Assembly (NCBI GenBank): GCA_963677925.2
Contig: CAXXYH010000004.1
Span: forward strand, 1,120,001-1,184,000
DNA from: Spirochaetia bacterium
Lineage (GTDB): Bacteria; Spirochaetota; Spirochaetia; UBA9216
Direction: 5' to 3'
DNA: 64,000 nucleotides
In this document: piece after piece, positions 19,117 to 37,229 of the stretch
Position numbering within the stretch: position 1 is the first letter of the stretch
Layout of the letters: each line of letters opens with the position of its first letter
Made by a program: the position numbers and the translations under genes
Notes under the pieces: model-generated
The model's database searches: none
What the model saw: the letters and a program-made list of their open reading frames with translations, nothing else
Told to the model about the DNA's origin: nothing

Positions 19117-19190
19117 ATAACAGGTTTATAAGGATTTAAGCTGGAGGGTTATATGAATGATATACCAGTTTATAATTCTGAGTTTATATG
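19105..19190 (+). promoter_or_regulatory. Putative attI-like primary recombination site
   Basis: Repeated GTT(T)ATA motifs (gggttattatgaat..gtttataa and gggttatatgaat..gtttataa); the first cassette left end TTATATGCAATGGACCCGAC starts at about 19184. Confidence 0.6.
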
Positions 19191-19265
19191 CAATGGACCC
19201 GACAAGAGGAAGACGCCCGGACCTCCGGCCGACGGGCGAAGAGACATAAAGGTGGGGGATTTTTT

Positions 19266-20735
19266 ATGCAAGATTTATATATAAAATATAATAAGAAAGA
19301 TAATAAAATTGATTTTGGGCAAACAAAAGGCTCAATAATCGAGATTACTATAAAGCCACCTTCAATCGTTAAAGAAACAAAAGAAACAGGCATAACGAGA
19401 ATATCTGCTATTCAAGAAGATTTTGATAATCTAATTTCGGGAAAGAAGATGATTGACGTTAATAAAACGACTCTCGAACATTGTTATATCTTGGATAAAA
19501 AGGATCCTTACCGATTAGCGGCGACAAATTTTATTTTAAAAAATGAAAAGGATATTGAAGAATATAGTGAAATTCCAAAAGAAAATGATGCTGGTATATA
19601 TAAAAACTATGTAAAAGCATTTTTAGAAGAATTTACAAGATGTACGAAACACATTCCGTTTGCTGAAAAAATTAAAGTCTATCCTTTACCATTGTTGACT
19701 CCATGTAATGTGGAAGTATTAGTAGGTAAAGATGGTGTGTGCTTTATTTTCTCATCAGAAAGTAGACCTGAAAAAGTAAGTGTTTCCTTAGATATAAATA
19801 AAATAATAGAGGAACTTCTTCTGCCTCATCCTACTAATAGAAGATATTCATCATATGGACCTAATACTATTTTTAATTTTATCTGCTCAGATGAGAATTT
19901 TATACATGTGGTAGGGGATGGGAATGCGTTTTTAGATTCTATGCTAGGGAATCCAGTATTTTTGATTTTTGAAAAATCGTTTCATGGTTATTATTCCAAT
20001 ATGAATTTTATAAGAAATTATCCTGATACGGGACTTCAAGTTAAAAAGAAAGTTGAATATTGTGAAATATTTGGTAATAACCATATCTCTAACTTTTCAC
20101 TTGAAAACGCAAGGAGTAGAGCTAGGATAGTTGCGTATAAATCAATTTTGAGTAGTGTTACAGGAAATGTTAATAAAGTAGAAGAACTTAAAAATGTCTT
20201 GATAGAATTGAAAAACAAAATAAACAATGATGTCGGTGAAATAGAAATTGAGAAATTTATTGATTCAAATAAATGGATTTTAGAGAAAGGGATAGGGTGT
20301 CAAAAATATTTTTCACAAATTTCGATACCGAAAGATTTATTATATGATGCTGATGGTGGAATTAAACCTGATAAATATATGATGAATAATGACGGATATT
20401 GTGATATTTTAGATTTAAAAAAACCATCAGCCAAACTAATTGTAATAAAGAATAACCGCAGTCATCAATCTAGTTCTTTAACCGAAGCGGAGGCACAAAT
20501 TGATAAATATATTGATTTCTCTCGTGAACCAAAGGTTAGAGATTATTTATTAACGCTTAATATAAAAATTACGAAACCTGATGGAATTGTATTGATTGGG
20601 AGAACCCCGAAGGAATATTTAAAAGAATGGATTGATATAAAAAAGAGATTACAAATAAAAGTATATACTTATGATGATTTAGTTAATAATTTGGATAATT
20701 TAATTGATTGGATAGATAAGATTCTTACAATTTGA
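19266..20735 (+). CDS. Cassette 1: Shedu (SduA/DUF4263)-like anti-phage nuclease
   Basis: C-terminal EKFIDSNKWIL...KPD...ILDLKKP...LTEAEAQ...PDGIVLIGR...VYTYDDL; RBS ggtggggg before ATG 19266. Confidence 0.75.
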   Translation: MQDLYIKYNKKDNKIDFGQTKGSIIEITIKPPSIVKETKETGITRISAIQEDFDNLISGKKMIDVNKTTLEHCYILDKKDPYRLAATNFILKNEKDIEEYSEIPKENDAGIYKNYVKAFLEEFTRCTKHIPFAEKIKVYPLPLLTPCNVEVLVGKDGVCFIFSSESRPEKVSVSLDINKIIEELLLPHPTNRRYSSYGPNTIFNFICSDENFIHVVGDGNAFLDSMLGNPVFLIFEKSFHGYYSNMNFIRNYPDTGLQVKKKVEYCEIFGNNHISNFSLENARSRARIVAYKSILSSVTGNVNKVEELKNVLIELKNKINNDVGEIEIEKFIDSNKWILEKGIGCQKYFSQISIPKDLLYDADGGIKPDKYMMNNDGYCDILDLKKPSAKLIVIKNNRSHQSSSLTEAEAQIDKYIDFSREPKVRDYLLTLNIKITKPDGIVLIGRTPKEYLKEWIDIKKRLQIKVYTYDDLVNNLDNLIDWIDKILTI

Positions 20736-20788
20736 ATTAAGAATCCAGACCTAACTCCGTTGAACGGTCTGGATGTCGGGTCCAAAGC

Positions 20789-20882
20789 ATAAAACAGGGG
20801 CTATGTGTATCGTCGCTATGCGCTCCTCGGGCTGCGCCACATACGGCTACGCCGTACGTCACATAACACCGGGACGTTATGA
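20789..20882 (+). repeat. attC-like site 1
   Basis: ataaaac-aggggctatgtg...cacataacacc-gggac-gttatga. Confidence 0.88.
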
Positions 20883-20993
20883 GCAATAAGCCCGACAAGT
20901 AAAAGACGCCCGGACCTCCGGCCGACGGGCAAAGAGAGACAGTGTGATAAAATATTATACTAAAAAAGTAAATATAGAATTAAGGGTTTTCAT

Positions 20994-21587
20994 ATGAAAA
21001 AAATAATATGTGTTCTAATCCTTTACATATTATCTATTTTTAGTTGTGTTACAACAGAAACTGTAAATATCAAGAAAGATAGTATGGAAAAGAGTGATTC
21101 TGTCTCTAAAGAAGAATTCAAAATTAGCATAAAAGAATTTGATGATATTTCAAAATATAAAAAGCTTATAAATTTATATGCATTTAAATATAGTGATGAG
21201 AGCAATACAGAATTTCGAGTTTTTACAGGTAGATGTTCAGCTTTTGTCAGGGACAATGGATATTCATCAATATTGCTGAACAATTCTGATGAGAGAGAAA
21301 TAATAAATAGTTATGAAGGTGATTATGAAAAAATTGCTATTATAAATGTCCATACAGTTGATTTAGATAAAGAAAATGGGAAAATTATAATAATCATGTT
21401 TGGAATAAATGATGATGATAAAGAAAAAATATTGTATGTACCTTTTTGGATTGCTACAGCAGAAGGTAAAAGTGTTGAGATTTTGAAATTAAAAAGTAGA
21501 GAAGAAGTTGGAAAATACATGATAGATTGTTTTTTTAATAATATGGAAATTTCTAATGAGTTGATTTATACATTAAGTGGAAATTAG
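20994..21587 (+). CDS. Cassette 2: hypothetical lipoprotein
   Basis: MKK + hydrophobic core + IFSC lipobox. Confidence 0.8.
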   Translation: MKKIICVLILYILSIFSCVTTETVNIKKDSMEKSDSVSKEEFKISIKEFDDISKYKKLINLYAFKYSDESNTEFRVFTGRCSAFVRDNGYSSILLNNSDEREIINSYEGDYEKIAIINVHTVDLDKENGKIIIIMFGINDDDKEKILYVPFWIATAEGKSVEILKLKSREEVGKYMIDCFFNNMEISNELIYTLSGN

Positions 21588-21660
21588 ATTATTCATAACA
21601 ATGAAGGATAAAGAATCCAGCCCTAACTCCGTTGGACGGTCTGGATGTCGGGCTTAAAGC

Positions 21661-21755
21661 TCATAACAGGGGCTATGTGCTTCGTCGCTATACGCTCCTC
21701 GGGCTGCGCCACATACGGCATTCGCCGTACGTCACATAACCCCGGGACGTTATAG
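21661..21755 (+). repeat. attC-like site 2
   Basis: tcataac...cccgggac-gttatag. Confidence 0.9.
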
Positions 21756-21848
21756 CGCAATGAGCCTGACAAGATGAAAATCGCCCGGACCTCCGGCCGA
21801 CGGGCGAAGATATATATATGCTAAGTATCCAAAAAAGGTGATATGTAA

Positions 21849-22385
21849 ATGAATTATCAAACAGTCTATGATATTTCTAAATCTTCTTATAATTGGGTAT
21901 TCCCCTTTTTAGGAATACTTATAACCATTTTATTAATAATTTTTACTAAAGTGGTAAGAAGAAACTTGAAAGTTTTAAATAGGATAGAGGCAGAAAAAGA
22001 AAAAAAGGAAATTTTCTATAATTTTAATAATCCATATGTGAGTAATATGTTGAGACGATTACCCATGGTTTTCACGATATTGGCTTCTATAGCGACCGTT
22101 TTTATAACTTATGGATCTATAAATTATTATGTGAAATTAAATGAAGTGATTCAAAATCAAGAGTATTCAGTTGTTGAAGATAAAATAAAAATTATTAATA
22201 AGTTTGAAACAAATAGAATTCAAAATTTCAAAGTTGGAAAATTTATTTTTAATGTTGCGGATATAAACTCCATCAGAATCTCATTTTGGAAATCTGGAAC
22301 ATATGAAGATTTTTTAGTTGAAGGTCAAGATGTTAAAGTTTATTTTTATGGAAAGTATATTTTGCGTGTTGATTTAATGAAATGA
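21849..22385 (+). CDS. Cassette 3: hypothetical two-TM membrane protein
   Basis: Two hydrophobic segments; RBS aggtga. Confidence 0.75.
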   Translation: MNYQTVYDISKSSYNWVFPFLGILITILLIIFTKVVRRNLKVLNRIEAEKEKKEIFYNFNNPYVSNMLRRLPMVFTILASIATVFITYGSINYYVKLNEVIQNQEYSVVEDKIKIINKFETNRIQNFKVGKFIFNVADINSIRISFWKSGTYEDFLVEGQDVKVYFYGKYILRVDLMK

Positions 22386-22520
22386 ATATGCATGCAAAAT
22401 TTCTATTCATATAGTTACTATTAAAGAGTAATTACTAAGAAATTTGAGTATTATTTTAGCATATAAGAGTGGGAATCCAGACCTAACTCCGTTGAACGGT
22501 CTGGATGTCAGGCTCAAAGC

Positions 22521-22843
22521 GCATAACAGGGGCTATATGCTCGTCGCTAAACGCTCCTTGGGCTTCGCCACATTTTTATTTTCTGAATTGGGTAATTGGG
22601 TACAGCATTTAACAAGAGATTTGGAGTAGTCAAAACCTTTGTCACAGTTCTGGCTAAAGACACTCCGCGCTGATCGCGCTACGTTCCAGAACTGCGCCAA
22701 GCCTCGGAGACTCGGCCGGTTTCGCTACTCAAATCGTCGTTAAATGCACAGAAATGTGCCAATAGTTTATGATTGAGAAATACGGGTAAGTGGTGGTAAA
22801 ATTAAGAAAAATAAAAACGTCATATAACCCCGGGGCGTTATGA
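22521..22843 (+). repeat. Long attC-like site 3 with a nested attC
   Basis: Same outer stem as the short sites; contains gcatttaac (22605)...gttaaatgc (22747). Confidence 0.88.
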
Positions 22844-22960
22844 GCAATGAGCCCAACAAGAGGAAGACGCCCGGACCTCCGGCCGACGGGCGAAGAATCG
22901 ATTGGTTTGATTTTTATAACTGATAAGTGATGTCAAAAGTAATATAAAGAATAGGTTGGT

Positions 22961-23680
22961 ATGGATATACAAGAGGATAAAGTAAATAATAATTTGATTG
23001 CGCAAGATTTAGAATTAGGAGTAATAACTATGGGGGCAGCAACGATTGATCAAAGACATAATTTTGCATACCAACATATGCACTCAGCTATTGAATTTAG
23101 GAATCAAACTTATAAAATTGAAGAAGATAATAAAAACGAAAAATTTGGATATTTTTTTGAGTTGATTAGAACATATGTAAGTGGTTGTATATTCTTTTCA
23201 GTGGCTTCAGTAGAGGCAAATATAAATGAAATTATATGTGATATTATTGAAAATAAAATAAAATTAGGTGAGTTTGAAAAAAAGAAAATTATTGAAATAA
23301 ATGATAGAGAGTCTACTCTTAAAAAATACGAAATCATATTAAACGAGGTAATGAAGTTTGAATTATCAAAAGATAAAGAAATTTATCAAAATATGAAAAT
23401 TTTAATAGATGTAAGAAATGCTTTTACTCATTTCAAACCAGAATGGGAATCAAATCAGAAATGGCATGATAAAATTGGAAGAAAATTATCTGGGAAAATC
23501 AAGATGACTCCATACATAGAAGATAGCAGTCCGATTTTTCCGATGCGTTGCATGACTTATGATTTTTGTTGTTGGTCCACAATATCAAGTTATAATTTTA
23601 TGAAAGAAATTTTTAGTTTACTATCAATAAGAAATAAATTTGAGAAATTTGAAGAAACAATTTATAAGGGTAGTAATTAA
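22961..23680 (+). CDS. Cassette 4: putative HEPN-domain protein
   Basis: Helical protein with SVEANIN and an RNAFTH (Rx4H) motif. Confidence 0.6.
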   Translation: MDIQEDKVNNNLIAQDLELGVITMGAATIDQRHNFAYQHMHSAIEFRNQTYKIEEDNKNEKFGYFFELIRTYVSGCIFFSVASVEANINEIICDIIENKIKLGEFEKKKIIEINDRESTLKKYEIILNEVMKFELSKDKEIYQNMKILIDVRNAFTHFKPEWESNQKWHDKIGRKLSGKIKMTPYIEDSSPIFPMRCMTYDFCCWSTISSYNFMKEIFSLLSIRNKFEKFEETIYKGSN

Positions 23681-23761
23681 TATAATTATATAGCTTATTT
23701 TTATAGTGTAAGGGAATCCAGACCTATCTCCGTCGAACGGTCTGGATGTTGGGCTCAAAGC

Positions 23762-24085
23762 GCATAACAGGGGCTATATGCATCGTCGCTAAATGCTCCT
23801 CGGGCTGCGCCACATTTTTATTTTGTAATTGGGTTAATAGGGTATAGCATTTAACAAAAGATTTGGAGTAGTCACAACCTTTGTCACAGTTCTGGCTAAA
23901 GACACTCCGCGCTGATCGCGCTGCGTTCCAGAACTGCGCCAAGCCTCGGTGACTCGGCCGGTTTCGCTACTCAAATCGTCGTTAAATGCACAGACATGTG
24001 CCAATAGTTTATGATTGTGAAATACGGGTAAGTGGTGGTAAAATTAAGAAAAATAAAAACGTCATATAACCCCGGGACGTTAGCT
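23762..24085 (+). repeat. Long attC-like site 4 with a nested attC
   Basis: Near-identical to site 3; inner element at 23847-23989. Confidence 0.88.
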
Positions 24086-24213
24086 GCAATTTCGGTCATG
24101 GTAATTATCTAATTAGTAGGAGCCCGCCTTCCATGGCGGTCAGGATAGAAGAAGTAAATATCTACATTTTGATACATTTTTTAAATAAACAATCTAAATA
24201 ATAAGGAATTTTA

Positions 24214-24933
24214 ATGAAAAAAAAGAGAATTATATCAATACTTCTATGTCTTTTTTCAACATCGGTCTATGCAGAAACAAATGATGTTCCAAATGGAATG
24301 ATCATAGAATCATCTTCTAATAATGGACAATCAATTCTTGTAAGAAAACATGACCAAGTTTTGACGATTGATTACTCTGCGCACGATTTTCAAATGGTTA
24401 TTTATGATTCTCCAATAAATAAAGAAAAAATTGGGGAATTGAAAAAGAAGGATGTAATACGAATAAAAGAAATACATATTATTGATGATAACGAAATGTG
24501 GTTTAAAATTTCTGCTTCTGAGAAAAATGGTTATATCTTATTTAAAATTGGTGAAAATATTTATGATTTCTACGCTGATAATTTATGGCAACCAGTAGAA
24601 ACTATTCAGAGTGGGGAGCAAACTTGGCATACATTAAAATGTAATCAGAGTTTTATTGTTTATACTAATTTGTTTATTCGTGATAAACCTGGATTTGGTG
24701 GGGAAAAAATAGGAATGATAACTGCAAATAATAGCAATTCCGAAATAGTAAGCACTTCAGAAGTTACTGTTGAAAAAGAGAAGATTGATGGAAAAACTGA
24801 ACGCTGGGCTAAAATTGAATATTAAGGACTAATTGGTTGGGTATTTGCAGGTTATTTGAGTTATGAAAGAGGTGGGCCTAGGTTTAATACTCCCGAATCA
24901 ATGATAGCAATGAGTCTTGGCGCAGGTATTTAA
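24214..24933 (+). pseudogene. Cassette 5: secreted SH3b-domain protein with an in-frame stop
   Basis: Signal peptide; IRDKPG...WAKIEY*GLIGWVFAGYL reads through TAA 24823-24825 to a stop at 24933. Confidence 0.8.
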
Positions 24934-25040
24934 ATTTTTAGATATTATTATAATTCGTGGAAATTTAAATTGTTTTACAGAGTCAAATACATCCTTGTAT
25001 TTGACAGAATTAATCACTTGACAACCATGACGGAAACAGC

Positions 25041-25367
25041 AGCTAACAGGGGTTATTTGCTTCGTCGCTATGTGCTCCTCGGGCTTCGCAACATTTTTAT
25101 TTTTGTAAATGGACGATATGACAAAAGGCATTTAACAATGATTTGCAGCAGTCCTGGCTATTTTCACGGTTTTAGCTAAAGACGTTCCGCGCTGATCGCG
25201 CTGCACTCTAAAACCGAGCCAATGCCGTAGGAGACTACGGCCGCCAGGCAGCTGAAATCGGCGTTAAATGCACAGACATGTGCCAATAGTTTATGATTGA
25301 GAAATACGGGTAAGTGGTGGTAAAATTAAGAAAAATAAAAACGTCATATAACCCCGGGACGTTATAC
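25041..25367 (+). repeat. Long attC-like site 5 with a nested attC
   Basis: agctaac...gttatac; inner element at 25128-25271. Confidence 0.88.
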
Positions 25368-25399
25368 GACATATCACATATCTAAAATGGAGTAAAAAA

Positions 25400-25807
25400 G
25401 TGAGTGAAAGACCGTTTAAAGAAAAATCGAATGAACCTACAAACGAAAAAATAAATGAAGCACTCGGTGCTGTTTCCGAATATTATCATGATTTAAATAA
25501 ATTGACAAAAGATTTTCAACACACCTGGAATCATTCAAAATCCAGTGGCTGGATGGAAAAAGTAGAAGATAATAAAAAAGCTCTTTACTATTTTATTCCG
25601 TTGAATGATTCCTTTATTCTGAGTATGGCTATTAGAGAAAATGAAAAAGAATATTTTGAGTCTAAAGAGGGTATGGTAAAATATAAAGATATAGTATCAA
25701 CCGCCAGAAAATATTCGGAAGGATATAATATAAAATTTGAGGTAGAAAACTCTGAGCAATACGATTTTTCAAAAGAGTTTGTAAAAGAAATAATTGCTCA
25801 AAGGTAG
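25400..25807 (+). CDS. Cassette 6: DUF3788-like protein
   Basis: PTNEKINEALG...W...GW...KKALYYFIP pattern; GTG start with RBS ggag. Confidence 0.7.
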   Translation: MSERPFKEKSNEPTNEKINEALGAVSEYYHDLNKLTKDFQHTWNHSKSSGWMEKVEDNKKALYYFIPLNDSFILSMAIRENEKEYFESKEGMVKYKDIVSTARKYSEGYNIKFEVENSEQYDFSKEFVKEIIAQR

Positions 25808-25821
25808 ATATGTGAAACGTC

Positions 25822-25915
25822 GTATAACAGGGGCTATGTGCTTCGTCGCTATACGCTCCTCGGGCTGCGCCACATACGGCTTCGCCGTACGTCACATAAC
25901 CCCGGAACGTTATCT
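25822..25915 (+). repeat. attC-like site 6
   Basis: gtataac...cccggaac-gttatct. Confidence 0.9.
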
Positions 25916-25977
25916 GACATACCCAGAAAAGTTCCGACCCTCACCATCCGTGGTTCGGGTTTTAAGAAGAAGAGAAA

Positions 25978-26724
25978 ATGAATATTGAATGTATTATTAA
26001 AGAAGCTGGAAGAAAGTTAAAGAACGAATATTTGGAAACGCCTCTTGTCTCAGTTAAAGAAAGATATGATTTAGTAAGTCAAAGTGATAAGAGGATTGAA
26101 GAGGAATTAATAAAAGAGATTATAAAGTTGTTTCCAAATGATGATATTTATTCAGAAGAAATTGGAGAAATTAAGAATGAAGGAAGATCAAGATGGATTA
26201 TAGATCCAATTGATGGAACCGCTGATTTTATTTTTGGAGTCCCGTACTTTGCAATATCAATCGCAAAAGAAGTAGATGGGATAATTGAAGAAGGTTATGT
26301 ATATAATCCAATATCGGAAGAGTTTTATAAATCAATTAAAAATGAAAGAAAATCCTACCTCAATGATGTAGAAATAAAAGTTTCAGAAAAAAATGTAATT
26401 GAAGAATCTTTAATTGCTTTCGGATTTAGTGCCAATGAAGAGAATATGAATTTATATCTTTCTGAATGGTCTAATCTCATGAATGATTGTAGAAAGGCAA
26501 TGCCATTAATCACTCCTGCATTAACAATTTGTAATGTCGCAAGAGGAAGGATCGACGCTTACATAGATTTTGGTTCAAGTATGGAAGGAAAAGCTGCTGC
26601 CAGTATGATATTGCTGAATGCAGGAGGAAGTATTCGGAATTATTATAGAGAGGGTTTTGATCATAGAGAAAAAGGACATATATGTAGCAATGGAAGATTG
26701 GATCTTGAAGAAGGAAGAGGTTAG
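25978..26724 (+). CDS. Cassette 7: inositol monophosphatase family protein
   Basis: SEE and WIIDPIDGT motifs; VARGRIDAY. Confidence 0.9.
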   Translation: MNIECIIKEAGRKLKNEYLETPLVSVKERYDLVSQSDKRIEEELIKEIIKLFPNDDIYSEEIGEIKNEGRSRWIIDPIDGTADFIFGVPYFAISIAKEVDGIIEEGYVYNPISEEFYKSIKNERKSYLNDVEIKVSEKNVIEESLIAFGFSANEENMNLYLSEWSNLMNDCRKAMPLITPALTICNVARGRIDAYIDFGSSMEGKAAASMILLNAGGSIRNYYREGFDHREKGHICSNGRLDLEEGRG

Positions 26725-26783
26725 GAAGAAAAATAAGTACATCCCTGTACTTATTTTAGAGGTATAATAAAAATGGGTACGTC

Positions 26784-26875
26784 AGATAACAAGGGTTACA
26801 CGCTCCGGCCATACGGCCTGCGGGCTGAGCCACATTCGGCTACACCGAACGTCGTGTAACCCTGGAACGTTATCT
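26784..26875 (+). repeat. attC-like site 7
   Basis: agataac-aagggttacac...gtgtaaccct-ggaac-gttatct. Confidence 0.88.
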
Positions 26876-26990
26876 GCAATGTTTCCGCCAAGAGGAAGAT
26901 GCCCGGACCTCCGGCCGACGGGCGAAGAAGAATGAGGTTTGAATATACTAATTAGTGAGATAAGATAAAATAAAAAAATGAGGTAGCATT

Positions 26991-27560
26991 ATGAAAGTGT
27001 TTATTTTAACTGTTTTAGGAGTAGTCTCAACAAGAATTTTGGATTTATTCACTACATATAAAATTACTCCGGATTTAGAGAAAGAAAGTAATTTATTTGT
27101 AAAGTTGCTTGGGGAAACTGGAGGTTGGGCAGCGATTTGGATATTTCAAGCAATTGTAGTAATTTTACTTCTCTATTTAGAATATTTAAGAATAAAAAGT
27201 CCAACCGTCGAATATGTAGAAGATGAGGGTTTGAAATTTAAAGAATATTTTTCATTAAATTATTCGAGTAAGAAAGATGATTTAATAAAATCAGTAATGA
27301 ATTTACCATTAAAGAAGAGGTTGATGATCGATCTATTAGGATATATTGGTACAAGAACTTTACTATTTGGAACAATTCCTGTCTGTTTATCAAGTCTGTT
27401 TGCGATTTTAAACTCTTCTTATCGAAGTTTCTATGTAGATAATAGTTTATGGAGAATACTGTATTTAATAATGGCAGTAGTATTAGTGAGTTTTTATATA
27501 AGATTTTTTTGGATAAGATTTAAGGATTATGAGAAGAAAGATATTTTAAAGAAAATGTAA
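26991..27560 (+). CDS. Cassette 8: hypothetical multi-TM protein
   Basis: Four hydrophobic segments; RBS gaggt. Confidence 0.75.
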   Translation: MKVFILTVLGVVSTRILDLFTTYKITPDLEKESNLFVKLLGETGGWAAIWIFQAIVVILLLYLEYLRIKSPTVEYVEDEGLKFKEYFSLNYSSKKDDLIKSVMNLPLKKRLMIDLLGYIGTRTLLFGTIPVCLSSLFAILNSSYRSFYVDNSLWRILYLIMAVVLVSFYIRFFWIRFKDYEKKDILKKM

Positions 27561-27637
27561 GAAAGAGAGAAAGAGAGAAAGAGAGAAACCAGCCCTGGCT
27601 CCGCCGTACGGTCTGGCTGAAGAGGCGGAAACACAGC

Positions 27638-27816
27638 AGATAACAGCGGCTATGTGCGGCGTCGCTAAACGCTCCTTGGCCTACGGCATATTTTGTTTTG
27701 GCATCGCTTTTGCGAAGAGGTAGAAAAATATAGGGTAAAGGCGTCGAATGCAAAAGTGCTGCCAATCGGCCTGTAGGGCCGACCACAAAACATCACATAA
27801 CCGCGGGACGTTATAG
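27638..27816 (+). repeat. attC-like site 8 (extended apical arm)
   Basis: agataac-agcggctatgtg...cacataaccgc-gggac-gttatag. Confidence 0.85.
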
Positions 27817-27930
27817 GAAATATTTTGGCTAAGAGAAAGACGCCCGGACCTCCGGCCGACGGGCAATAAGGAAAAAAAGAATAAATTTTAAAATTGATAT
27901 ATTATGTCAATATATAAGAAATGAAACGTA

Positions 27931-29057
27931 TTGAAAAGGATTCTATTATTTTTATTATTATTAGGAATAACCTCATGTAAAAACTTTTTTCCATATTATC
28001 AAAATGGATACCATTTCAATCAAATATTTTCTAAAGATACAAAACTTATTTTAGATGAAAAAGCAGATTCATTCTCTGCGTTTATATCTGAGACTTCTAA
28101 AGTTTTAGTATATTATAGTACTGATGGGATGGTGCACTTGATAGATTTGGAAGGATTGATTGAAGTTTCCACCATCCCTTGGGTTGATAATTCAAATTAT
28201 TATAATGATATTGTTCCTGATTTTAAACAATTGTATATTTATGAAAATTATTTGTATCTTCTAGGGTCAACAGATTGTCTGGTATATTTGATTGAGGATA
28301 TATCAAATCCATCTTTTAAATATTCTATTAGTGAAAATAATACCTATAATTTAAACACTACCTATTATTTAAGTTTAAGATGTATGGATAATAAAATATA
28401 TATTTTAGATTCTAATTCATTTTCATACTATAAACTATTATTAATTTTGGATGCAGATAATATGCTAGAAATTGAAAGACATTATTTAGATTCTTTTGAA
28501 GGAGTAATTGATAAAGAAATTTACTTAAATTCAAATTATTTATACACTTTTTCAAGTGAGCTTAAAATTGATAAAGATGGTAATCCTTTTACAATAACAA
28601 ATCAAATGATTGTTTATGATATTACTGATATTTCTAATAATTATGAATTGGTCGATATAAATTCTATCAGTTTAGAGGACAATGGATTTAATATATATAA
28701 TGATATTATAGTAAGTGATGGAGCAATAGGTTTAAATTCAGAAGAGTATTTTTGGAGCATAATAAAATTAGATAGTGAAAAAAATATGAATTTCTACAAA
28801 AATGTAATTCAACAGATGAAATAAACTTGTTTAGTTATTTTGATTTAGATTTTGATTTTAATAATATTTTAATCGGGAATTATTTTGTTTATGATATAAG
28901 AGAGTTAAATAGTCCAAGATGGATTGGGACTATTGATGAGGATTTGAAAGACATCGAAGTTGTAAGAAAACTTCAAACTGGAGATAACTTATTTTTATTT
29001 GAAAAAGGTAGTGATAGTGAGAATGAAATAGCTTTAGTGAAGTATGCTTTTAATTGA
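27931..29057 (+). pseudogene. Cassette 9: LVIVD-repeat-like lipoprotein split by a frameshift
   Basis: ITSC lipobox; DISNP, YDITDI and YDIRELNSP repeats; the frame changes near the A run at about 28798-28802. Confidence 0.7.
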
Positions 29058-29156
29058 TAAAGTTTGTTTTGGGATACTGTTAAAGTTGAAAGTTGTATGT
29101 TTAAGAGTCCAGCCCTATCTCCGATGTACGGTCTGGCTCAAGAGCCAAAATACTTC

Positions 29157-29479
29157 CTATAACAGGGGCTATATGCTCAGCCCATTCGGGCTTCGGGCTG
29201 CGCCACATTTTTATTTTATGGATTGGGCTATTTGGGTATAGCATTTAACAAAAGTTTTGGAGCAGTCCTGGCTATTGTCATGATTCTGGCAGAGACGTTC
29301 CGCGCTGATCGCGCTGCACTCCAGAATCACGCCAATGCGCGCGAAGACACGCGCCGCCATGCAGCTCAAAACGTCGTTAAATGCACAGACATGCGCCAAT
29401 AGTTTGTGATTGGTAAATACGGGTAAGTGGTGGTAAAATTAAAAAAATAAAAACGTCATATAACCCCGGGACGTTATGC
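29157..29479 (+). repeat. Long attC-like site 9 with a nested attC
   Basis: ctataac...gttatgc; inner element at 29241-29384. Confidence 0.88.
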
Positions 29480-29950
29480 GGACATCGCCGGAGCATGGTT
29501 ATGGGGTGGAGAAAGTTCCGAACAAGAAGTGATTACCAAATAGTTTGCAATATTCAATTCGCCCTAGATTGAGGAAGATTTTTGATTTTGATTTGGATGT
29601 TGTTGGAAGAAGGTCGTTAAAATTGACGAAGCTTGTTCTGGCGTGAAAGAAAAAGTATTGTCTTAAAATTATCAAAATCTTTTTTGAAGATGGAGCAGGT
29701 TTTACCATTTTGCAAGTCTGATTCACTCGCATAGCTCGTTGACTTGCGACTTAATAAAAATGATTGTTTTACTTGCAAAGGGCGAATAGAATATTGAGAA
29801 GAAATAGAAAGAGAAGATTGTATAGATTATTTGATTGATCGGAATCTTTCTCTAATAAAGGCGACGTCGCATAACAGGGCACATGCGGCTACGGGGTCAA
29901 GCCCCTTCGCCCAAATTGGCCTGCGGCCAACTTCGCATATGCCCGGGACG
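29474..29950 (+). other. Cassette 10: ORF-less structured cassette (includes attC-like site 10, 29869-29956)
   Basis: No credible + strand ORF; nested inverted repeats; diverged tandem copy follows. Confidence 0.8.
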
Positions 29951-30426
29951 TTATGCGGACATCGCCGTAGCATGATCTTGGGGTGGAGAAAGTTCCGAAC
30001 CAGAAGTGATTACCAAATAGTTTGCAATATTCAATTCGCCCTGGATTGAGGGAGATTTTGGATTTTGATTTTGTGGTTGTCAGAAGAAAGCCGTTGCATC
30101 TGACGAAGTTTATTCTGACGTGGAAAAAAGTATTGTTTTATAATTATCAAAATCTGCTTCGTGGACTTGGCAGGGTTTTCCGTTTGGCAAGTCTGCCTCA
30201 CTCGCTTTGCTCGTTGACTTGCAGGTGAAATAAAAATGATTGTGAAAGTCGCAAAGGGCGAATAGAATATTGGGTAGAAATGGTAAGAGGAGATTTGTTA
30301 GGTCATTTGATTGATCGGAATCTTTCTCTAATAAAGGCGACGTCGCATAACAGGGCACATGCGGCTACGGGGGCAAGCCCCTTCGCCCAAATTGGCCTGC
30401 GGCCAACTTCGCATATGCCCGGGACG
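29951..30426 (+). other. Cassette 11: ORF-less structured cassette, paralogue of cassette 10 (includes attC-like site 11, 30345-30432)
   Basis: 476 bp versus 477 bp; stems conserved while linkers have diverged. Confidence 0.8.
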
Positions 30427-30500
30427 TTATAGGAAATGCCCATCAAAATCTTTGAAAGATCCTCGCCATCCATGGCTCGGTTTAGAAGAATAGAAAGAAG

Positions 30501-30529
30501 TTGACAATCCACTACAATGTAATTACAGT
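30501..30529 (+). promoter_or_regulatory. Sigma70 promoter of the brnT-brnA cassette
   Basis: TTGACA-17 bp-TACAGT, overlapping palindrome tgtaattaca. Confidence 0.7.
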
Positions 30530-30535
30530 ATAAAT

Positions 30536-30820
30536 ATGGAACATATCCAGTTTGAATGGGATAATAAGAAAGATGAGCTAAATCAGAAGAAGCATAAGAT
30601 AGGTTTTGACGAGGCAAAAACTGTATTTTATGATCCATCTGCATTGTTGATTCATGATCCAGATCATTCTGAAGATGAAGAAAGATTCATAATTATGGGG
30701 ATGAGTCAAAGCTTGAAGATCTTAGTTGTTTGTCATTGTTATAGATCTAATGATGAAGTTATACGAATAATATCTGCTAGAAAAGCAGAGAAAGAAGAGA
30801 TTAGGCAATATGGAGGATGA
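30536..30820 (+). CDS. brnT: Cassette 12: BrnT-family toxin
   Basis: FEWDNKK...NQKKHKIGF...EERFIIMG...IRIISARKA. Confidence 0.93.
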   Translation: MEHIQFEWDNKKDELNQKKHKIGFDEAKTVFYDPSALLIHDPDHSEDEERFIIMGMSQSLKILVVCHCYRSNDEVIRIISARKAEKEEIRQYGG

Positions 30821-30824
30821 AGAT

Positions 30825-31040
30825 ATGAGAGATTCATATGATTTTTCGAATGCAAGAAAGAATCCTTACATTACAAAATTAAAGAAGCAAATCACAATCA
30901 GATTGGATGAAGAAACCATAGATTATTTTAAAGAGATGTCAGAAGAATCAGGGATAAAATATCAGCAATTAATAAATCTTTATCTGGCTGATTGTGCAAA
31001 GAAAAATCTAAAATTAAATATAAATTGGAAAGCCTCTTAA
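30825..31040 (+). CDS. brnA: Cassette 12: BrnA-family antitoxin
   Basis: YDFSNARKNPY...KKQITIRLD...YQQLIN. Confidence 0.9.
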   Translation: MRDSYDFSNARKNPYITKLKKQITIRLDEETIDYFKEMSEESGIKYQQLINLYLADCAKKNLKLNINWKAS

Positions 31041-31093
31041 AGCCCAAAGTACGTCCTGTACTTTGGGTAAATAATAAAAGTGATGGGCACTTC

Positions 31094-31188
31094 CTATAAC
31101 AGGGGCTATGTGCTTCGTCGCTATGCGCTCCTCGGGCTGCGCCACATACGGCTTACGCCGTACGTCACATAACCCCTGGACGTTAGCT
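31094..31188 (+). repeat. attC-like site 12
   Basis: ctataac...gttagct. Confidence 0.9.
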
Positions 31189-31313
31189 GAAATGCCCCCG
31201 CGAAGAGAAAGACGCCCGGACCTCCGGCCGGCGGGCGATAAGGAAATTATAATATGCATAATTGATTTACAAGTCTAAATATAGTACTATATAAGCACTA
31301 ATAGGAGTTTATT

Positions 31314-31598
31314 ATGAATTTAAGAGAAGATATTAAGCCGATTTCATATATTAAAACAAACGCAGCAGACATGTTAAAACGTGTTAATGATACTCACAAC
31401 CCGATTGTAATAACCCAGAATGGTGAAGCAAAAGCAGTTTTGATGGATACTGAATCATATCAAGAAATGAGGAATAGTCTTGGAATTTTAAAATTGCTTG
31501 CAGAAGGTGAACGTGATATCGAAAAGGGAGATATCTATACACAAGATGAAGTTTTTGAAGAAATTGAAGCAAAACTGTTAAATATGAAGAAGAAATAA
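31314..31598 (+). CDS. Cassette 13: Phd/YefM antitoxin
   Basis: IKPISYIK...PIVITQNGEAKAVLMD. Confidence 0.92.
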   Translation: MNLREDIKPISYIKTNAADMLKRVNDTHNPIVITQNGEAKAVLMDTESYQEMRNSLGILKLLAEGERDIEKGDIYTQDEVFEEIEAKLLNMKKK

Positions 31599-31602
31599 TG
31601 AT

Positions 31603-31917
31603 ATGGAAGTTATTTGGACTAAAACAGCAAAAAATGATTTAAATGAGATAGTTGAATATATAGCAAATGACTCTGTAGAAATAGCATTAAATAAATTTTA
31701 TGAAATTAGAGAAAGTACTAAACCCTTAGAGAAATTTCCTGAACAAGGAAGACTGATTCCAGAATTAAGAAATGAAAACATCTTGCGATATAGGGAAATT
31801 ATAATAAACCCATGGCGGATAATGTATAAAATAGAAGATAAGAAAGTTTATATTATAGCAGTCATAGATGGAAGAAGAAATGTTGAAGATGTTTTAATGA
31901 AAAGGCAACTTCGTTAA
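31603..31917 (+). CDS. Cassette 13: RelE/ParE-family toxin
   Basis: VIWTKTAKNDLNEIVEYIA...FPEQGR...WRIMY...VIDGRR. Confidence 0.9.
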   Translation: MEVIWTKTAKNDLNEIVEYIANDSVEIALNKFYEIRESTKPLEKFPEQGRLIPELRNENILRYREIIINPWRIMYKIEDKKVYIIAVIDGRRNVEDVLMKRQLR

Positions 31918-31982
31918 AGAAACATTAAAAGAATCCAGACCTAACTCCGTCGAACGGTCTGGATGAAGAGCGGGGGCACTAC

Positions 31983-32075
31983 AGCTAACAGGGGCTATGT
32001 GCATCGTCGCTATACGCTCCTCGGGCGCGCCACATACGGCTTCGCCGTACGTCACATAACCCCGGGACGTTAGAC
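31983..32075 (+). repeat. attC-like site 13
   Basis: agctaac...gttagac. Confidence 0.9.
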
Positions 32076-32128
32076 GAAATCACGAACCTAAGAGAAAGAG
32101 GATGCTTGCCATCCTTGGCAAGCAAAGA

Positions 32129-32157
32129 TTGACAAATTTATGTAATTACTATATAAT
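32129..32157 (+). promoter_or_regulatory. Consensus sigma70 promoter of the mazEF cassette
   Basis: TTGACA-17 bp-TATAAT overlapping gtaattac palindromes. Confidence 0.85.
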
Positions 32158-32176
32158 TACAATAAAGAGGTGTATT

Positions 32177-32425
32177 ATGTTAGTTTCAGTGGTTCCTATA
32201 GGCAATTCAAAAGGAATACGAATTCCGAAGAGCATTTTGCAACAGTTAAATATTGAAGAAAAAGTTGAATTAGAAGTGCATAATACAGAAATACTGATTA
32301 GACCAATAAAGAAAAAGCCAAGGGAAGGATGGTCCGAAGAGTTTATGAAGATGCATCAAAATGGGGATGATTCATTACTTTTAGACAATTTGACTGAACA
32401 GGGTGATTTTGAATGGGAATGGTAA
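32177..32425 (+). CDS. mazE: Cassette 14: AbrB/MazE antitoxin
   Basis: IGNSKGIRIPK motif; RBS gaggtg. Confidence 0.9.
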   Translation: MLVSVVPIGNSKGIRIPKSILQQLNIEEKVELEVHNTEILIRPIKKKPREGWSEEFMKMHQNGDDSLLLDNLTEQGDFEWEW

Positions 32426-32742
32426 TTCATCAATATGAGGTATATTTAATAAACTTAGATCCAACAGTTGGCCATGAAATAAAAAAGACAAGACCTTGTT
32501 TAGTGATTTCACCAAATGAAATGAATGAAACAATCCAGACTATTATTATCGCTCCAATGACAACAAAATCACATACATATCCTACTCGTGTAGCTGTTAA
32601 GTTTCAAAATAAAGATGGATGGATTGTTTTAGATCAATTAAGAACTGTTGATAGGAAGAGATTAATTAAAAAGATTGGTAAAATAAATAGAAAAGAAGTA
32701 GATCTCGTCAAGAATGTGCTACAGGAAATGTTAATAGATTAA
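32413..32742 (+). CDS. mazF: Cassette 14: PemK/MazF toxin
   Basis: LDPTVGHEIKKTRPCLVIS...DQLRTVD. Confidence 0.94.
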   Translation: MGMVIHQYEVYLINLDPTVGHEIKKTRPCLVISPNEMNETIQTIIIAPMTTKSHTYPTRVAVKFQNKDGWIVLDQLRTVDRKRLIKKIGKINRKEVDLVKNVLQEMLID

Positions 32743-32791
32743 AGCCAAACAACATCCATGTTGCTTGGCTTTGAAGAAGGTTCGTGACATC

Positions 32792-32882
32792 GTCTAACAA
32801 GGGTTATTCGCTCGTCACTACGCTCCTCGGGCTGCGCCACATACGGCTTCGCCGTACGTCACATAACCCCGGAACGTTATCC
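32792..32882 (+). repeat. attC-like site 14
   Basis: gtctaac...gttatcc. Confidence 0.88.
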
Positions 32883-32973
32883 GAAATATTGTGGCTTGAA
32901 GAAACTCGCCTTCCTTGGCTCGTTAGAAAGAATTAAGATTGATAAAAATTAAAAAGTGTTGTACAATGTACAT

Positions 32974-33366
32974 ATGAGCATATTGGTAGATGCAAACATA
33001 TATTTAGCAGTAATTCTCGATGAGCCGGAAAAAAGCAAAATTATTGGATTAACTCAGGAAGATGATCTGATATCACCGGTTGTTTTACCTTTCGAAGTGG
33101 GAAACGCTCTATCTGCAATGTATAAAAGAAATAGATTAGATAAAAGTCAAATAATTGATTGTTATTCAATATTTCAGAAAATACCAGTGCGTTTGATTGA
33201 TGTTAATATTCAAAACTCATTAGTAATAGCAGCAGATTATGGAATATATGCCTACGATGCGTATTATTTGGAGATAGCAAAACGATACAAATGCAGTTTG
33301 TTGAGTTTGGATAATAGAATGAAAGAAGTGGCTAATGATTTAGGAGTTCACTTATTGGAGGTCTGA
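32974..33366 (+). CDS. vapC: Cassette 15: PIN/VapC toxin (toxin-first order)
   Basis: ILVDAN, EVGNAL, YDAYYL, SLD acidic PIN residues. Confidence 0.9.
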   Translation: MSILVDANIYLAVILDEPEKSKIIGLTQEDDLISPVVLPFEVGNALSAMYKRNRLDKSQIIDCYSIFQKIPVRLIDVNIQNSLVIAADYGIYAYDAYYLEIAKRYKCSLLSLDNRMKEVANDLGVHLLEV

Positions 33367-33591
33367 ATGAGAGTTTTTAATTATTCAGAAGCAAGGCAGA
33401 ATTTCGCTTCAATATTGAATATGGCAGCAGAAGAAGATGTCATAATAGCAAAGAAGGATGGAAGCAGATTTAAGATTGTACCGCTTACTAAAAATGAAAG
33501 CAAATCACCATTTGATGTTCCAGGAATTAAAAGTAAAGTTACAACCAAAGAAATTCTTGATGTAATTAGAGAAACTCGAGAGTTATCGTAG
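33367..33591 (+). CDS. Cassette 15: Phd-like antitoxin
   Basis: FNYSEARQNFASILN...VIIAKKDG. Confidence 0.85.
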   Translation: MRVFNYSEARQNFASILNMAAEEDVIIAKKDGSRFKIVPLTKNESKSPFDVPGIKSKVTTKEILDVIRETRELS

Positions 33592-33643
33592 AGAAGAAAG
33601 CCGTAATTACGTCCTGTAATTACGGCTTAAGCCACAATACTTC

Positions 33644-33725
33644 AGATAACAAGGGTTACACGCTCCGGCCATTCGGCCTACGCCCAAATTGCTGCGCAAC
33701 TTCGCTTAACCCTGGAACGTTAGCT
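33644..33725 (+). repeat. attC-like site 15
   Basis: agataac-aagggtta...taaccct-ggaac-gttagct. Confidence 0.88.
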
Positions 33726-33846
33726 GAAATGCAACCGCTAAGAGAAAGACGCCCGGACCTCCGGTCGACGGGCGATCATGAAGAGAAAGAATATAAAAAT
33801 TGACATGATATATATCAAGGTATATACTTAAAATAGAGGTGGGTAT

Positions 33847-34077
33847 ATGCAAACGGCAAAAATTTTTCAAAATGGAAGATCTCAAGCTATTAGGATACCG
33901 AAAGAATATCAGTTTAAAGGTGATGAAGTATACATTCAAAAGCATGGCGATGCTGTACTGTTGATTCCGCATGAAAAAGCTTGGGAAGTCTTTATGGAAG
34001 GCATAAATGAGTTCACAGAAGATTTTATGAAAGATGGAAGAGAACAAGGCGAAGTACAAGAGAGAGAAGCATTTTAA
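33847..34077 (+). CDS. vapB: Cassette 16: VapB antitoxin
   Basis: AKIFQNGRSQAIRIPKEY; promoter TTGACA-17-TATACT upstream. Confidence 0.94.
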   Translation: MQTAKIFQNGRSQAIRIPKEYQFKGDEVYIQKHGDAVLLIPHEKAWEVFMEGINEFTEDFMKDGREQGEVQEREAF

Positions 34078-34475
34078 TGTATTTACTTGATACTAATATT
34101 TGTATATTCGCGATTAAACGTAAGCCTTCAAAAGTATTTGAATTAATAAAAGAAAGATCTAAAGAAGGAATATATATTTCATCATTAACAGTAGCAGAGT
34201 TGGAATTTGGTGTTCAAAATAGTGAACGAGAAGAGCAAAACAGAATAGCTCTTCTAAAATTTCTTTCTGTATTCAATATTTTAAATTTTGATGATTCAGA
34301 CGCAATAGATTATGGGAGGATGAAAGTAGATTTAAGAAAGAATGGTAATGTAATTGGACCAATTGATATGTTATTGGCTGCGCAAGCTTTGAATAAAGAT
34401 ATGATATTTGTAACCAATAATGTAAAAGAATTTGAAAGAGTAAAAGGTTTAAGAATAGAAGATTGGAGTGTTTAG
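34077..34475 (+). CDS. vapC: Cassette 16: VapC toxin
   Basis: YLLDTNICI, AELEFG, IGPIDMLLAAQA, VTNNVKEFERV. Confidence 0.95.
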   Translation: MYLLDTNICIFAIKRKPSKVFELIKERSKEGIYISSLTVAELEFGVQNSEREEQNRIALLKFLSVFNILNFDDSDAIDYGRMKVDLRKNGNVIGPIDMLLAAQALNKDMIFVTNNVKEFERVKGLRIEDWSV

Positions 34476-34529
34476 AAGAATCCAGCCCTAACTCCGTCGA
34501 ACGGTCTGGATGAGGAGCGGTGGCACTAC

Positions 34530-34623
34530 AGCTAACAGGGACTATGTGCTCGTCGCTTTATGCTCCTCGGCCTTCGCCACATACGGCTTACGCCGTACGT
34601 CACATAACCCCGGGACGTTATGT
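34530..34623 (+). repeat. attC-like site 16
   Basis: agctaac...gttatgt. Confidence 0.88.
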
Positions 34624-34686
34624 TCAATGCCCGGCTTAAGAGCTTAATAGTCCTCGGCAATCCGTGGCCTCGGGAAGGAAGAAGAA

Positions 34687-35676
34687 ATGAAAAGTAATGC
34701 AGAAAAAACAATACAATCTCTTAGAAAGATTAATGATTTCCCTTTTTATATCGCAAAATATTATGGTGACTATAAAATTACTGAATATAAGAATGGAGCG
34801 ATAAAAAGTCCAAATGATATAGTTCCTTTTTTTAAAAATCTTTTTTCAGAATTAGGACAACCAACAGAGTTAAGTTTTCCAAAGCCTCCTGAAATCAATT
34901 TAGGTTGTAGTGCTTTTTTCTGCCGCGATAAAAAAAACTCTGCTATCATTGGTAAAAACAATGACTGGAAAAGAGATCCAATTCTTTTACTCAAGACAAC
35001 ACCAGATGAAGGCTATACATCATTTTCTATGGTTAATTTGAGTTTCTGTGATTTATTTCAATTAGGTTCTTTTGATCACAATCTATTATTATCACCTTAT
35101 GTTCCACTCGATGGTATGAATGAGATTGGGCTTGTTGTAACAACATTGGCTGTTCATGAAGGTTCAGAATATCCGCTAAAATCAAATCATTTATCAGTTG
35201 GTGATTTTAATTTAGTAAGAATTATCCTTGATACATGTGCCAATATAGATGAAGCAATCGTTATAATTGATCAGTATAATATAATGCAAACAGGTCCGCT
35301 TCCAATACATCTTCTTATCGCTGATAAAAGTGACTCTTGTATAGTTGAATTCTTTGATGGAAAGAAACATATAAAAAGAGATCAAGATTTAAACTACTTA
35401 ACAAATTTTCTTAAACTGAAAACTTCTGATTATGAGAATCAAAGGAATCTTTGTAATCGGTATCAGACTATAGAAAGACGGTTTAAGCAAGATAAAATTA
35501 TCATTAAAATTCATGAAGCAAAGAAAATTTTTTCAGAAGTATCAGTTTGTACTGGAAATTTTCAAATTCCAAGTACCATCTATTCAACAATATATTGTCC
35601 GAATGATTTAAGTCTGAAAATAAAGATAGGTGATGAATCAAAATATTACTCGTTATCGCTACAGGAGAGTAAATGA
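34687..35676 (+). CDS. Cassette 17: Ntn hydrolase (C45/choloylglycine hydrolase-like)
   Basis: GCSAF nucleophile, GKNNDW, DGMNEIGL, HLLIAD, LTNF. Confidence 0.85.
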   Translation: MKSNAEKTIQSLRKINDFPFYIAKYYGDYKITEYKNGAIKSPNDIVPFFKNLFSELGQPTELSFPKPPEINLGCSAFFCRDKKNSAIIGKNNDWKRDPILLLKTTPDEGYTSFSMVNLSFCDLFQLGSFDHNLLLSPYVPLDGMNEIGLVVTTLAVHEGSEYPLKSNHLSVGDFNLVRIILDTCANIDEAIVIIDQYNIMQTGPLPIHLLIADKSDSCIVEFFDGKKHIKRDQDLNYLTNFLKLKTSDYENQRNLCNRYQTIERRFKQDKIIIKIHEAKKIFSEVSVCTGNFQIPSTIYSTIYCPNDLSLKIKIGDESKYYSLSLQESK

Positions 35677-36239: not shown

Positions 36240-36261
36240 AACCAAACCTGCCGGGCAATAA

Positions 36262-36408
36262 ACATAACAGCGAATATGCGGTTGCGCTTCGCTCCACCCA
36301 AATTGCTTCTTTGATAAAATCTGAAAAAAGTATGTTATACTTTTTCCAGATTTTATCAAGCCCCGCAAGGGGGCTGAAGCAACTTCGCATATTCGCGAAA
36401 CGTTATAT
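36262..36408 (+). repeat. attC-like site 17 (extended)
   Basis: acataac-agcgaatatgcg...cgcatattcgc-gaaac-gttatat. Confidence 0.87.
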
Positions 36409-36557
36409 GATATAATTGAGCAGGCGGCAAATAGACACTCGCCGTCCTGGCTTGTGTGTAAGAGAATATAAATGATTTAACAATTAATAAATGATTAAAA
36501 ATTTCAAATAGAATATAAAATCATTTAGGTTTATTTTTAGGAGAAGAAAGAAGAAGA

Positions 36558-37211: not shown

Positions 37212-37229
37212 TCAATATGTCAATAAACA

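Follow-up and report, generated by a model that had tools for sequence, protein, structure and literature searches.

Why would one recombination site be housed inside another? The question is raised by a 64,000-nt stretch of DNA from an uncultured Spirochaetia lineage (hereafter the window), in which an array of small plus-strand open reading frames (ORFs), with a repeated recombination site between them, occupied approximately 19.1–38 kb. The usual view of integron cassettes is that their movement is restricted to sites which their integrase recognises. In four sites of this array, the small apical hairpin was replaced by a long arm whose core, judged by its sequence, is an attC site of a second, classical integron on another contig of the same genome. 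These long sites are probably composite, dual-substrate sites through which cassettes would be shuttled between two recombinase systems. The window is G000:C4:1120001-1184000, G000 being the 5.04 Mb, four-contig genome of the host, and all coordinates given without a prefix are window positions. We have designated the outer site family, that of the window's array, A and the inner site family, that of the attC sites on contig C3, B. The coordinates of the features are collected in Table 1.

Anatomy of the nested sites

The short A sites consisted, in order, of TAAC, 1 nt, an 11-nt L'' box, approximately 50 nt closing in the hairpin ACGGCnnnGCCGT, the L' box, 5 nt and GTTA; the L stem was 11 bp long. 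Several subtypes of the L boxes were found, and complementarity was kept among them (GGGGCTATGTG/CACATAACCCC, AGGGTTACACG/CGTGTAACCCT and GCGAATATGCG/CGCATATTCGC). Analysis of the window with nhmmer revealed 18 A-family matches within 20788–37968, of which 13 were full length or nearly so and five were left halves, the latter corresponding to the four nested sites and to site 8, which has a long apex. The array followed a cassette-end rule, in that the 9 nt starting at each GTT were complementary to the 9 nt that close with AAC in the following site. This rule matched at 9/9 positions for sites 1–2, 4–5, 5–6, 6–7, 7–8 and 8–9, and such complementarity is the mark of cassettes that were cut and rejoined at the G/TT point. 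The nested sites obeyed it too (9/9 for 4–5, 5–6 and 8–9). The outer R' of nested site 4 (GTTAGCTGC) was the exact complement of the outer R'' of site 5 (GCAGCTAAC), the outer R' of nested site 5 (GTTATACGA) was the complement of the R'' of the site that follows it (TCGTATAAC), and the outer R'' of nested site 9 (TCCTATAAC) was the complement of the R' of site 8 (GTTATAGGA).

Site 8 (27641–27813) represented a third form of the A site, with an apical arm of approximately 100 nt on the stem TTTTGTTTTGG/CCACAAAAC and without an inner attC. The same form (172 nt) was found twice in the stretches read of G001, a genome of the same genus as G000. An AG-rich simple repeat (AGAAAGAGAG-like) was present at 27560–27590, at the end of the ORF preceding site 8, and the contigs of a public metagenome run were cut there.

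A first-pass annotation of the window had described four sites of about 325 bp with a canonical-looking inner site, and all four were recovered, at the lengths given in Table 1 when the outer limits were set at TAAC...GTTA. They aligned with a mean column identity of 80%. The apex of the short sites read CACAT-ACGGCnnnGCCGT-ACGTCAC, with an apical hairpin of 14 nt, and that of the long sites read CACAT-TTTTATTTT...AAAATAAAA-ACGTCAT, with approximately 250 nt in place of the hairpin. The annotation was right that an arm of this length replaces the apical hairpin, but the arm is not the uniform structure it had been taken for: it was made up of an AT stem (TTTTTATTTT/AAAATAAAAA), a left flank of approximately 35 nt, an inner hairpin of 143–145 nt and a right flank of approximately 75 nt.

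The inner hairpin was bounded by GCATTTAAC and GTTAAATGC. Its boxes were ATTTAAC and GTTAAAT in all four nested copies, which fits RYYYAAC/GTTRRRY, and past the boxes there was an unpaired spacer (4 nt on the left, 3 nt on the right) followed by a stem with one extra base. This base was an invariant G in the L'' arm, forming a bulge, and the base after it covaried with its partner. The positions, boxes and covarying stems reported in the first-pass annotation agreed with this analysis. The inner attC of site 5 belonged to a diverged subtype in which the stems were compensated. A search of the window with R1, a covariance model trained on 33 C3 sites only (training members score 102–165 bits), returned exactly four full-length matches, which were the four nested sites; the inner element is therefore not a chance resemblance. 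When site 3 was folded as single-stranded DNA, the outer stem, the AT stem and the inner hairpin formed together on the minus strand (−53.4 kcal/mol, z = −4.63), and none of 100 shuffled sequences folded as well; the z-score of the plus strand was −2.16. With DNA parameters, the bottom strand of the inner site had a folding energy of −34.9 kcal/mol, compared to −28.7 kcal/mol for the top strand.

The right flank was the best-conserved part of the insert, with near-invariant columns. It contained a promoter-like sequence, TTGAGA-18-TAAAAT with TG before the −10 box, reading towards the next cassette and agreeing with the consensus at 10/12 positions at 22773–22802 and 25297–25326 and at 9/12 positions at 24015–24044. 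These are consensus matches in AT-rich DNA, where the promoter scan gave 19 sites against 12.7 expected. By eye, TGnTAnAAT was also present in the right-flank variants of the relatives G007 and G006 and of C3. It is plausible, on sequence grounds, that the right flank acts as a promoter for the downstream cassette.

The integron on contig C3 and the two recombinases

A search of the genome with the 246-nt arm gave 36 matches, four in the window and 32 on C3, the latter on one strand and approximately 1–1.5 kb apart. With an nhmmer profile of the B family, 43 copies were found in the 5.04-Mb genome, comprising the four nested in the window and 39 between C3:51.6 kb and C3:126.8 kb, all of these on one strand; over the whole genome, the profile found no copy beyond the two arrays. 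The 39 C3 copies are standalone inner elements beside an intI gene, and a search for both had been advised in the first-pass annotation. The four nested copies, unlike those on C3, were located approximately 3.5–10 kb downstream of a recombinase that is not IntI. Copies of the inner site were up to 99% identical. In an alignment of 50 B sites from three genomes, 92.6% of cells were paired and 28 of 45 pairs showed changes on both sides; none of 500 shuffles reached the observed pairing, and slid controls gave at most 40.3%. The AAC and GTT were invariant in 50/50 sites, and the apex was branched, with length variants of approximately 138–207 nt.

The B sites on C3 also followed an end rule. 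Among 38 consecutive pairs, 35 had an R'' extension whose complement agreed with the R' extension of the previous site at 6 or more of 9 positions; agreement as good as this with the R' of its own site was found in only 9 of 39. At approximately C3:127975, ahead of intI, the sequence GTTATCTAT was the complement of the R'' of the first cassette (ATAGATAAC), which places attI. The intI gene, the B array, the end rule and the covarying pairing together identify C3 as carrying a classical integron and B as its attC family. IntI-level cassettes that started with TTAAATGC and the right flank ended with the left flank and GCATTTAAC.

The array on C3 was interrupted between 60.4 kb and 83.5 kb by approximately 23 kb without attC sites, at which the end rule broke (2/9). 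A match resembling a tyrosine recombinase was found within this gap (C3:62041-62814), which is probably an inserted element.

The recombinase encoded at the head of the window's array scored 232.5 bits with the Xer-like profile NF040815 (cut-off 220 bits). With TIGR02249 it reached 194.2 bits in two stretches, below the cut-off of 265 bits, whereas the C3 IntI scored 382.5 bits in one stretch covering positions 5–315 of 315. An enzyme was counted as IntI when it had an extra domain of approximately 35 residues near patch III and passed TIGR02249; this IntI-specific domain is described in PMC4889954. The two enzymes were 30% identical, with gaps of 31 and 8 residues in the window enzyme where IntI carries the extra domain. 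The first-pass annotation had set the local recombinase apart from classical IntI, which agrees with these results, and the second intI it had suggested looking for is the C3 gene.

Relatives were examined in a set of 61 genomes (G000 and 60 others), 10 of the others belonging to the same family. The Xer-like gene adjoined the A array and directly abutted the first cassette, and IntI adjoined the B array, in G000, in G001 and in G007, a member of another genus. In G007, an ortholog of the Xer-like enzyme with 53% identity lay upstream of the A array, and the ortholog of IntI (G007:C1:4525065-4526315; 51% identity) had one in-frame TAG, representing either a pseudogene or a sequencing error. 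A Pacearchaeota locus (L047) encoding an Xer-like homolog with 39% identity had no repeat array, and relatives as distant as this inform neither way.

All four B sites in the A array were nested and all A elements in the B array lay inside pairs of half sites. Free use of both families by one enzyme should mix plain sites in both arrays, and the separation of the two families argues for two specificities. The unpaired spacer was also on opposite arms, with 1 nt on the left and 5 nt on the right in A, and 4 nt and 3 nt respectively in B. The Xer-like enzyme presumably cuts the outer site and the C3 IntI the inner one, as their positions suggest.

Exchange between the arrays and its probable explanation

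In the IntI array, half-nested sites occurred as five ordered pairs, with one or two A-type cassettes enclosed by each. A pair opened with a B site and TTAAATGC, to which the right flank and the right half of the outer site were joined; after the cassettes came the left half of the outer site, the left flank and another B site. No unpaired outer half was seen in the IntI array on C3. Ordered pairs of this kind are expected because recombination at the inner G/TT of a nested site must yield them; they would arise by integration of a circle carrying a nested site, or by excision and re-integration of the segment between two nested sites. Two cassettes were shared between the arrays. The first, together with nested site 9, ended at the inner R' of that site, and its C3 copy was flanked by an inner site, right flank and outer right half on one side and by an outer left half, left flank and inner site on the other. 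The similarity of the second, a MazE/MazF cassette, stopped at an outer-type GTTAT. The first-pass annotation had proposed a search of reads for rearrangements at the inner GTT; such rearrangements are to be seen in the assembled C3 array, as the five half-site pairs and the two shared cassettes.

Some part of the site was matched in 13 of the 61 genomes, including 8 of the 10 others of the same family. One complete nested site was found in the A array of G001, as counted in the stretches read, and one complete and one disrupted in that of G007, whose IntI array also contained one ordered half-site pair. All 25 outer pairs were kept in each of the six complete nested sites. The outer stem of G007 showed three compensatory double changes (L'' GGGAATATAAG versus L' CTTATATTCCC), and its inner stems were compensated too. 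A right flank of the G007 type, with an outer half, was present inside the IntI array of G000 (C3 54.1–54.4 kb), which indicates that cassettes of both lineages circulate.

A scan of metagenomes for the left flank joined to the inner R'' gave four matches, of which two were real half sites (L057 and L059) and two were due to chance (L058 and L060); the pattern was narrow, and four matches are no measure of spread. In L057 (SDBT01210236.1, oriented 695–1000), a G007-type outer left half and left flank were joined to a different attC family, in which the GCATTTAAC box was kept, the L stem and apex differed and the end was GTTATGCTG. The adaptor module may have combined with more than one attC family.

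We consider it likely that the long sites are composite sites serving as substrates for two recombinases, an explanation that draws on what the sequences show of how the sites are built, of the attC family to which the inner site belongs, of half-site recombinants, of cassettes present in both arrays and of conservation with compensatory changes. Each long site would consist of one hairpin recombination site enclosing another, and in the folded single strand both hairpins could form simultaneously. The site could then be cut at the outer G/TT, presumably by the Xer-like enzyme, or at the inner G/TT, presumably by the C3 IntI. A circle excised by either enzyme would carry the whole composite site and could be taken into the other array by the other enzyme. 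Where the inner site is the point of integration or excision, the outer site would be split, an IntI-level cassette then starting with the right half of it and finishing with the left, and IntI would thereby transport one A-type cassette, or several together, as one unit. We infer that the sites fold as single strands in vivo and that the arrangement has been selected for shuttling. The adaptor role proposed in the first-pass annotation, a link to a classical IntI integron, gains support from the second intI, the 39 standalone copies, the five half-site pairs and the two shared cassettes. The chances seem evenly balanced for a broader view, in which the IntI integron and the array run by the Xer-like enzyme form a two-level cassette system that shares one pool through evolved nested sites; a block of cassettes from the other system would be moved by IntI as though it were one cassette, and the right flank would supply a promoter to the cassette downstream.

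Several observations weigh against shuttling through composite sites. The outer site is given to the Xer-like enzyme by adjacency in three related genomes, and the IntI reading frame of G007 contains one TAG. The right flanks of pairs 1 and 2 on C3 belonged to a subtype absent from the window's array (approximately 81–90% identity), so that a one-step event from donor to recipient is not reconstructable for either shared cassette, and the history must include further exchanges at both levels. Some half sites were decayed or truncated. Conservation in the body of the inner site is so high that identical half-site products would follow from a crossover at any point within it, as in homologous recombination. 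One public metagenome run, whose contigs were fragmented and broke at every att repeat, showed no excision product. Finally, the nesting itself sets one site in the apex of the other, an order that neither enzyme's normal reaction would produce. The public run may be the sample from which the genome came. Its joints, such as that of a tail hairpin to an inner site, were arrangements already present in the C3 array and are uninformative on excision; its contigs 2 and 3, at sites 4 and 5, ran without differences from the outer left half across the left flank into the beginning of the inner site.

It is unlikely, but has a case, that the C3 IntI recombines both families and that the Xer-like gene is a bystander. 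The nested site would then be an attC in an attC for one integrase, and the window's array an attC cluster lacking an integrase. IntI enzymes recognise structure rather than sequence, according to PMC4889954, the A sites have the TAAC...GTTA ends and a cassette-end rule in common with the B sites, and distant Xer-like homologs are not always beside arrays, the Pacearchaeota locus having none. A single enzyme of this kind does not account for the absence of plain B sites from the A array (0 beside 18 A-family matches) or for the confinement of A elements in the B array to half-site pairs. The direct abutment of the Xer-like gene and the first cassette in three genomes and the placement of the unpaired spacers on opposite arms also speak for two enzymes. 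Rather improbable is the proposal that the nesting arose once by accident and was kept by descent, the halves in the IntI array being old debris without a function in exchange. Compensatory changes, which preserve pairing in the outer as well as the inner stems from one genus to another, do not fit such a relic, nor does the near-identity of the MazE/MazF cassette in the two arrays, nor the perfect register of the nested sites with the A-level end rule, although copies are few (four in G000, one in the stretches read of G001 and two in G007) and some half sites are decayed or truncated.

Homologous recombination between the inner-site repeats of approximately 143 nt, as the process that made the half sites and moved the segments, we regard as very unlikely. 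Placement of a segment in this way needs two crossovers each time, and all five cases were clean cassette-level units in the right order; the end rule at G/TT across the whole array (35/38) is, in addition, the mark of integrase action. What can be said for it is that inner copies are up to 99% identical and that a crossover in their body is indistinguishable from one at G/TT. There is next to no chance that the 250-nt arm represents a small non-autonomous mobile element with the apex of att sites as its target, the other option offered in the first-pass annotation as a small non-coding element. Terminal inverted AT-rich repeats (TTTTTATTTT/AAAATAAAAA) and a constant position in the outer site would suit such an element, but none of the 43 copies of the core was found beyond the two arrays, and the arm replaces the apical hairpin rather than interrupting it, with no target duplication. 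The copies were 80–94% alike with compensated stems and not near-identical, and the core was an ordinary attC of the IntI array with no Rfam match. A mobile element was rejected as dispersed copies, target-site duplication and near-identity were all lacking, and composite sites shuttling cassettes between two systems are preferred.

Further cassette features and comparison with known systems

Table 1. Location of the recombinase genes, recombination sites, shared cassettes and conserved hairpins in the window and on contig C3
Feature	Location	Strand	Remarks
Xer-like tyrosine recombinase, 357 aa	18043–19116	+	directly upstream of the A array, same strand
C3 IntI, 419 aa	C3:128199-129458		divergent from the B array
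A-type array	20792–37964	+	nhmmer
Nine clean short A sites (starts)	20792, 21664, 25825, 31097, 31986, 32795, 34533, 37120, 37892	+
More diverged A sites (starts)	26787, 33647, 36265, 29868, 30346	+
Nested site 3, outer	22524–22840 (317 nt)	+	left half R''/L'' from 22524; right half L'/R' to GTTA at 22840
Nested site 4, outer	23765–24082 (318 nt)	+
Nested site 5, outer	25044–25364 (321 nt)	+
Nested site 9, outer	29160–29476 (317 nt)	+
Inner B attC, site 3	22605–22748	+	R1 162 bits, E 1.8e-43, model positions 1–145
Inner B attC, site 4	23847–23990	+	R1 155.6 bits, E 1.2e-41
Inner B attC, site 5	25128–25272	+	R1 110.4 bits, E 7.4e-29
Inner B attC, site 9	29241–29385	+	R1 155.2 bits, E 1.5e-41
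Right flanks of the insert	22749–22821, 23991–24063, 25273–25345, 29386–29458	+
Half-site pair 1 (positions of the B sites, as for pairs 2–5)	C3 126781 / 124420		plain A site between, 125832–125741
Half-site pair 2	C3 121093 / 119435
Half-site pair 3	C3 110195 / 108987		both outer halves decayed
Half-site pair 4	C3 107772 / 106410
Half-site pair 5	C3 54352 / 53415		last B site internally deleted
Shared cassette with nested site 9 (ORF 27931–28824)	27787–29386	+	C3:120890-119291, 98.4% over 1601 nt
Shared MazE/MazF cassette (PF04014, PF02452)	32049–32880	+	C3:126573-125742, 99.76% over 832 nt
Hairpin GCCCGGACCTCCGGCCGACGGGC, window	19215–19237, 20908–20930, 21783–21805, 22869–22891, 26901–26923, 27842–27864, 31214–31236, 33751–33773, 40283–40305
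Hairpin GCCCGGACCTCCGGCCGACGGGC, examples on C3	C3 125713–125691, 119221–119199, 93009–92987
Hairpin CCAGACC...GGTCTGG, window	20745–20772, 21617–21644, 22477–22504, 23718–23745, 27589–27616, 29109–29136, 31935–31962, 34482–34509
Hairpin CCAGACC...GGTCTGG, C3	C3 117947–117920, 104784–104757

The first cassette after the recombinase (19188–20735) encoded a 515-aa protein with a C-terminal Shedu SduA domain (PF14082, 48.1 bits), and a 520-aa ORF was found first, in the same place, in the array of G007. After nested site 9, between 29452 and 30430, a unit of approximately 476 nt was present twice in a repeat with 86–92% identity. Each unit closed with a weak A-type site (29868–29956 and 30346–30433), and the two units look like ORF-poor cassettes.

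Two conserved hairpins accompanied the cassettes. The GC-rich hairpin GCCCGGACCTCCGGCCGACGGGC followed AAGAGnAAGA approximately 25 nt past the site at many cassette starts in both arrays, and was also found directly after the recombinase gene. Rfam offered no match for it, and a leader or translation signal common to the cassette pool is conceivable. The second, CCAGACC...GGTCTGG, was located approximately 15 nt before many sites at cassette ends and preceded A, nested and plain B sites.

A natural site built for reading at two levels would offer a concrete route for cassettes between recombination systems of different specificity, and the window's array would be a testable case of a recombinase without the IntI-specific domain running an integron-like array. 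Going by the compensatory changes that the two stems display, a folded site remains functional with an entire second site lodged in its variable apex. For genome engineering, the arrangement offers a natural design of single-strand recombination sites that are orthogonal and nested. Full-text literature searches, within the part of the literature they covered, brought up no nested, composite or double attC, no two-array system of this kind and no integron-like array with an Xer-type enzyme.

Group IIC-attC introns insert into attC sites, and the nested sites resemble them in having a foreign element inside an integron recombination site. They differ in that the arm was only approximately 250 nt, its core was an attC, there was no reverse transcriptase ORF, and an Rfam scan of the window, at the gathering threshold and at E ≤ 5, gave no relevant family, group II introns included. 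The attC features set out in PMC4889954 are paired R and L boxes, an unpaired central spacer, an extrahelical base and a variable terminal structure. The inner element is like the attC sites of sedentary chromosomal integrons in its boxes, spacer, L stems with an extrahelical base and branched variable apex, and its family is alike in having 39 copies beside a domain-bearing IntI with ends complementary across G/TT; the four copies in the window differ in that they do not separate cassettes of that integron but sit in the apex of another array's site family, a fixed flank on either side. Resistance cassettes have been matched to the attC types of a set of taxa that includes spirochaetes (PMC8352920). 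The window's array resembles a cluster of attC sites that has no integron integrase (CALIN), as defined in PMC4889954, in having attC-like sites without an IntI-type integrase beside them, but differs from it in the conserved Xer-like recombinase, without the IntI domain, that abuts the first cassette in three genomes.

The same source describes chimeric attC sites that arise by recombination of attC with attC or of attI with attC (PMC4889954). The half-nested sites of the IntI array are like these in having the upstream part from one partner and everything past G/TT from the other; what distinguishes them is that half of a second site travels in the downstream part that is exchanged, such that the IntI-level cassette starts and ends with outer halves. 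Synthetic attC sites embedded in arbitrary sequence (PMC7439510) are alike in the idea that foreign sequence can be placed in the non-conserved part of the site, which still folds and recombines. Those sites were engineered, whereas the sequence embedded in the window's four long sites is a second natural recombination site.
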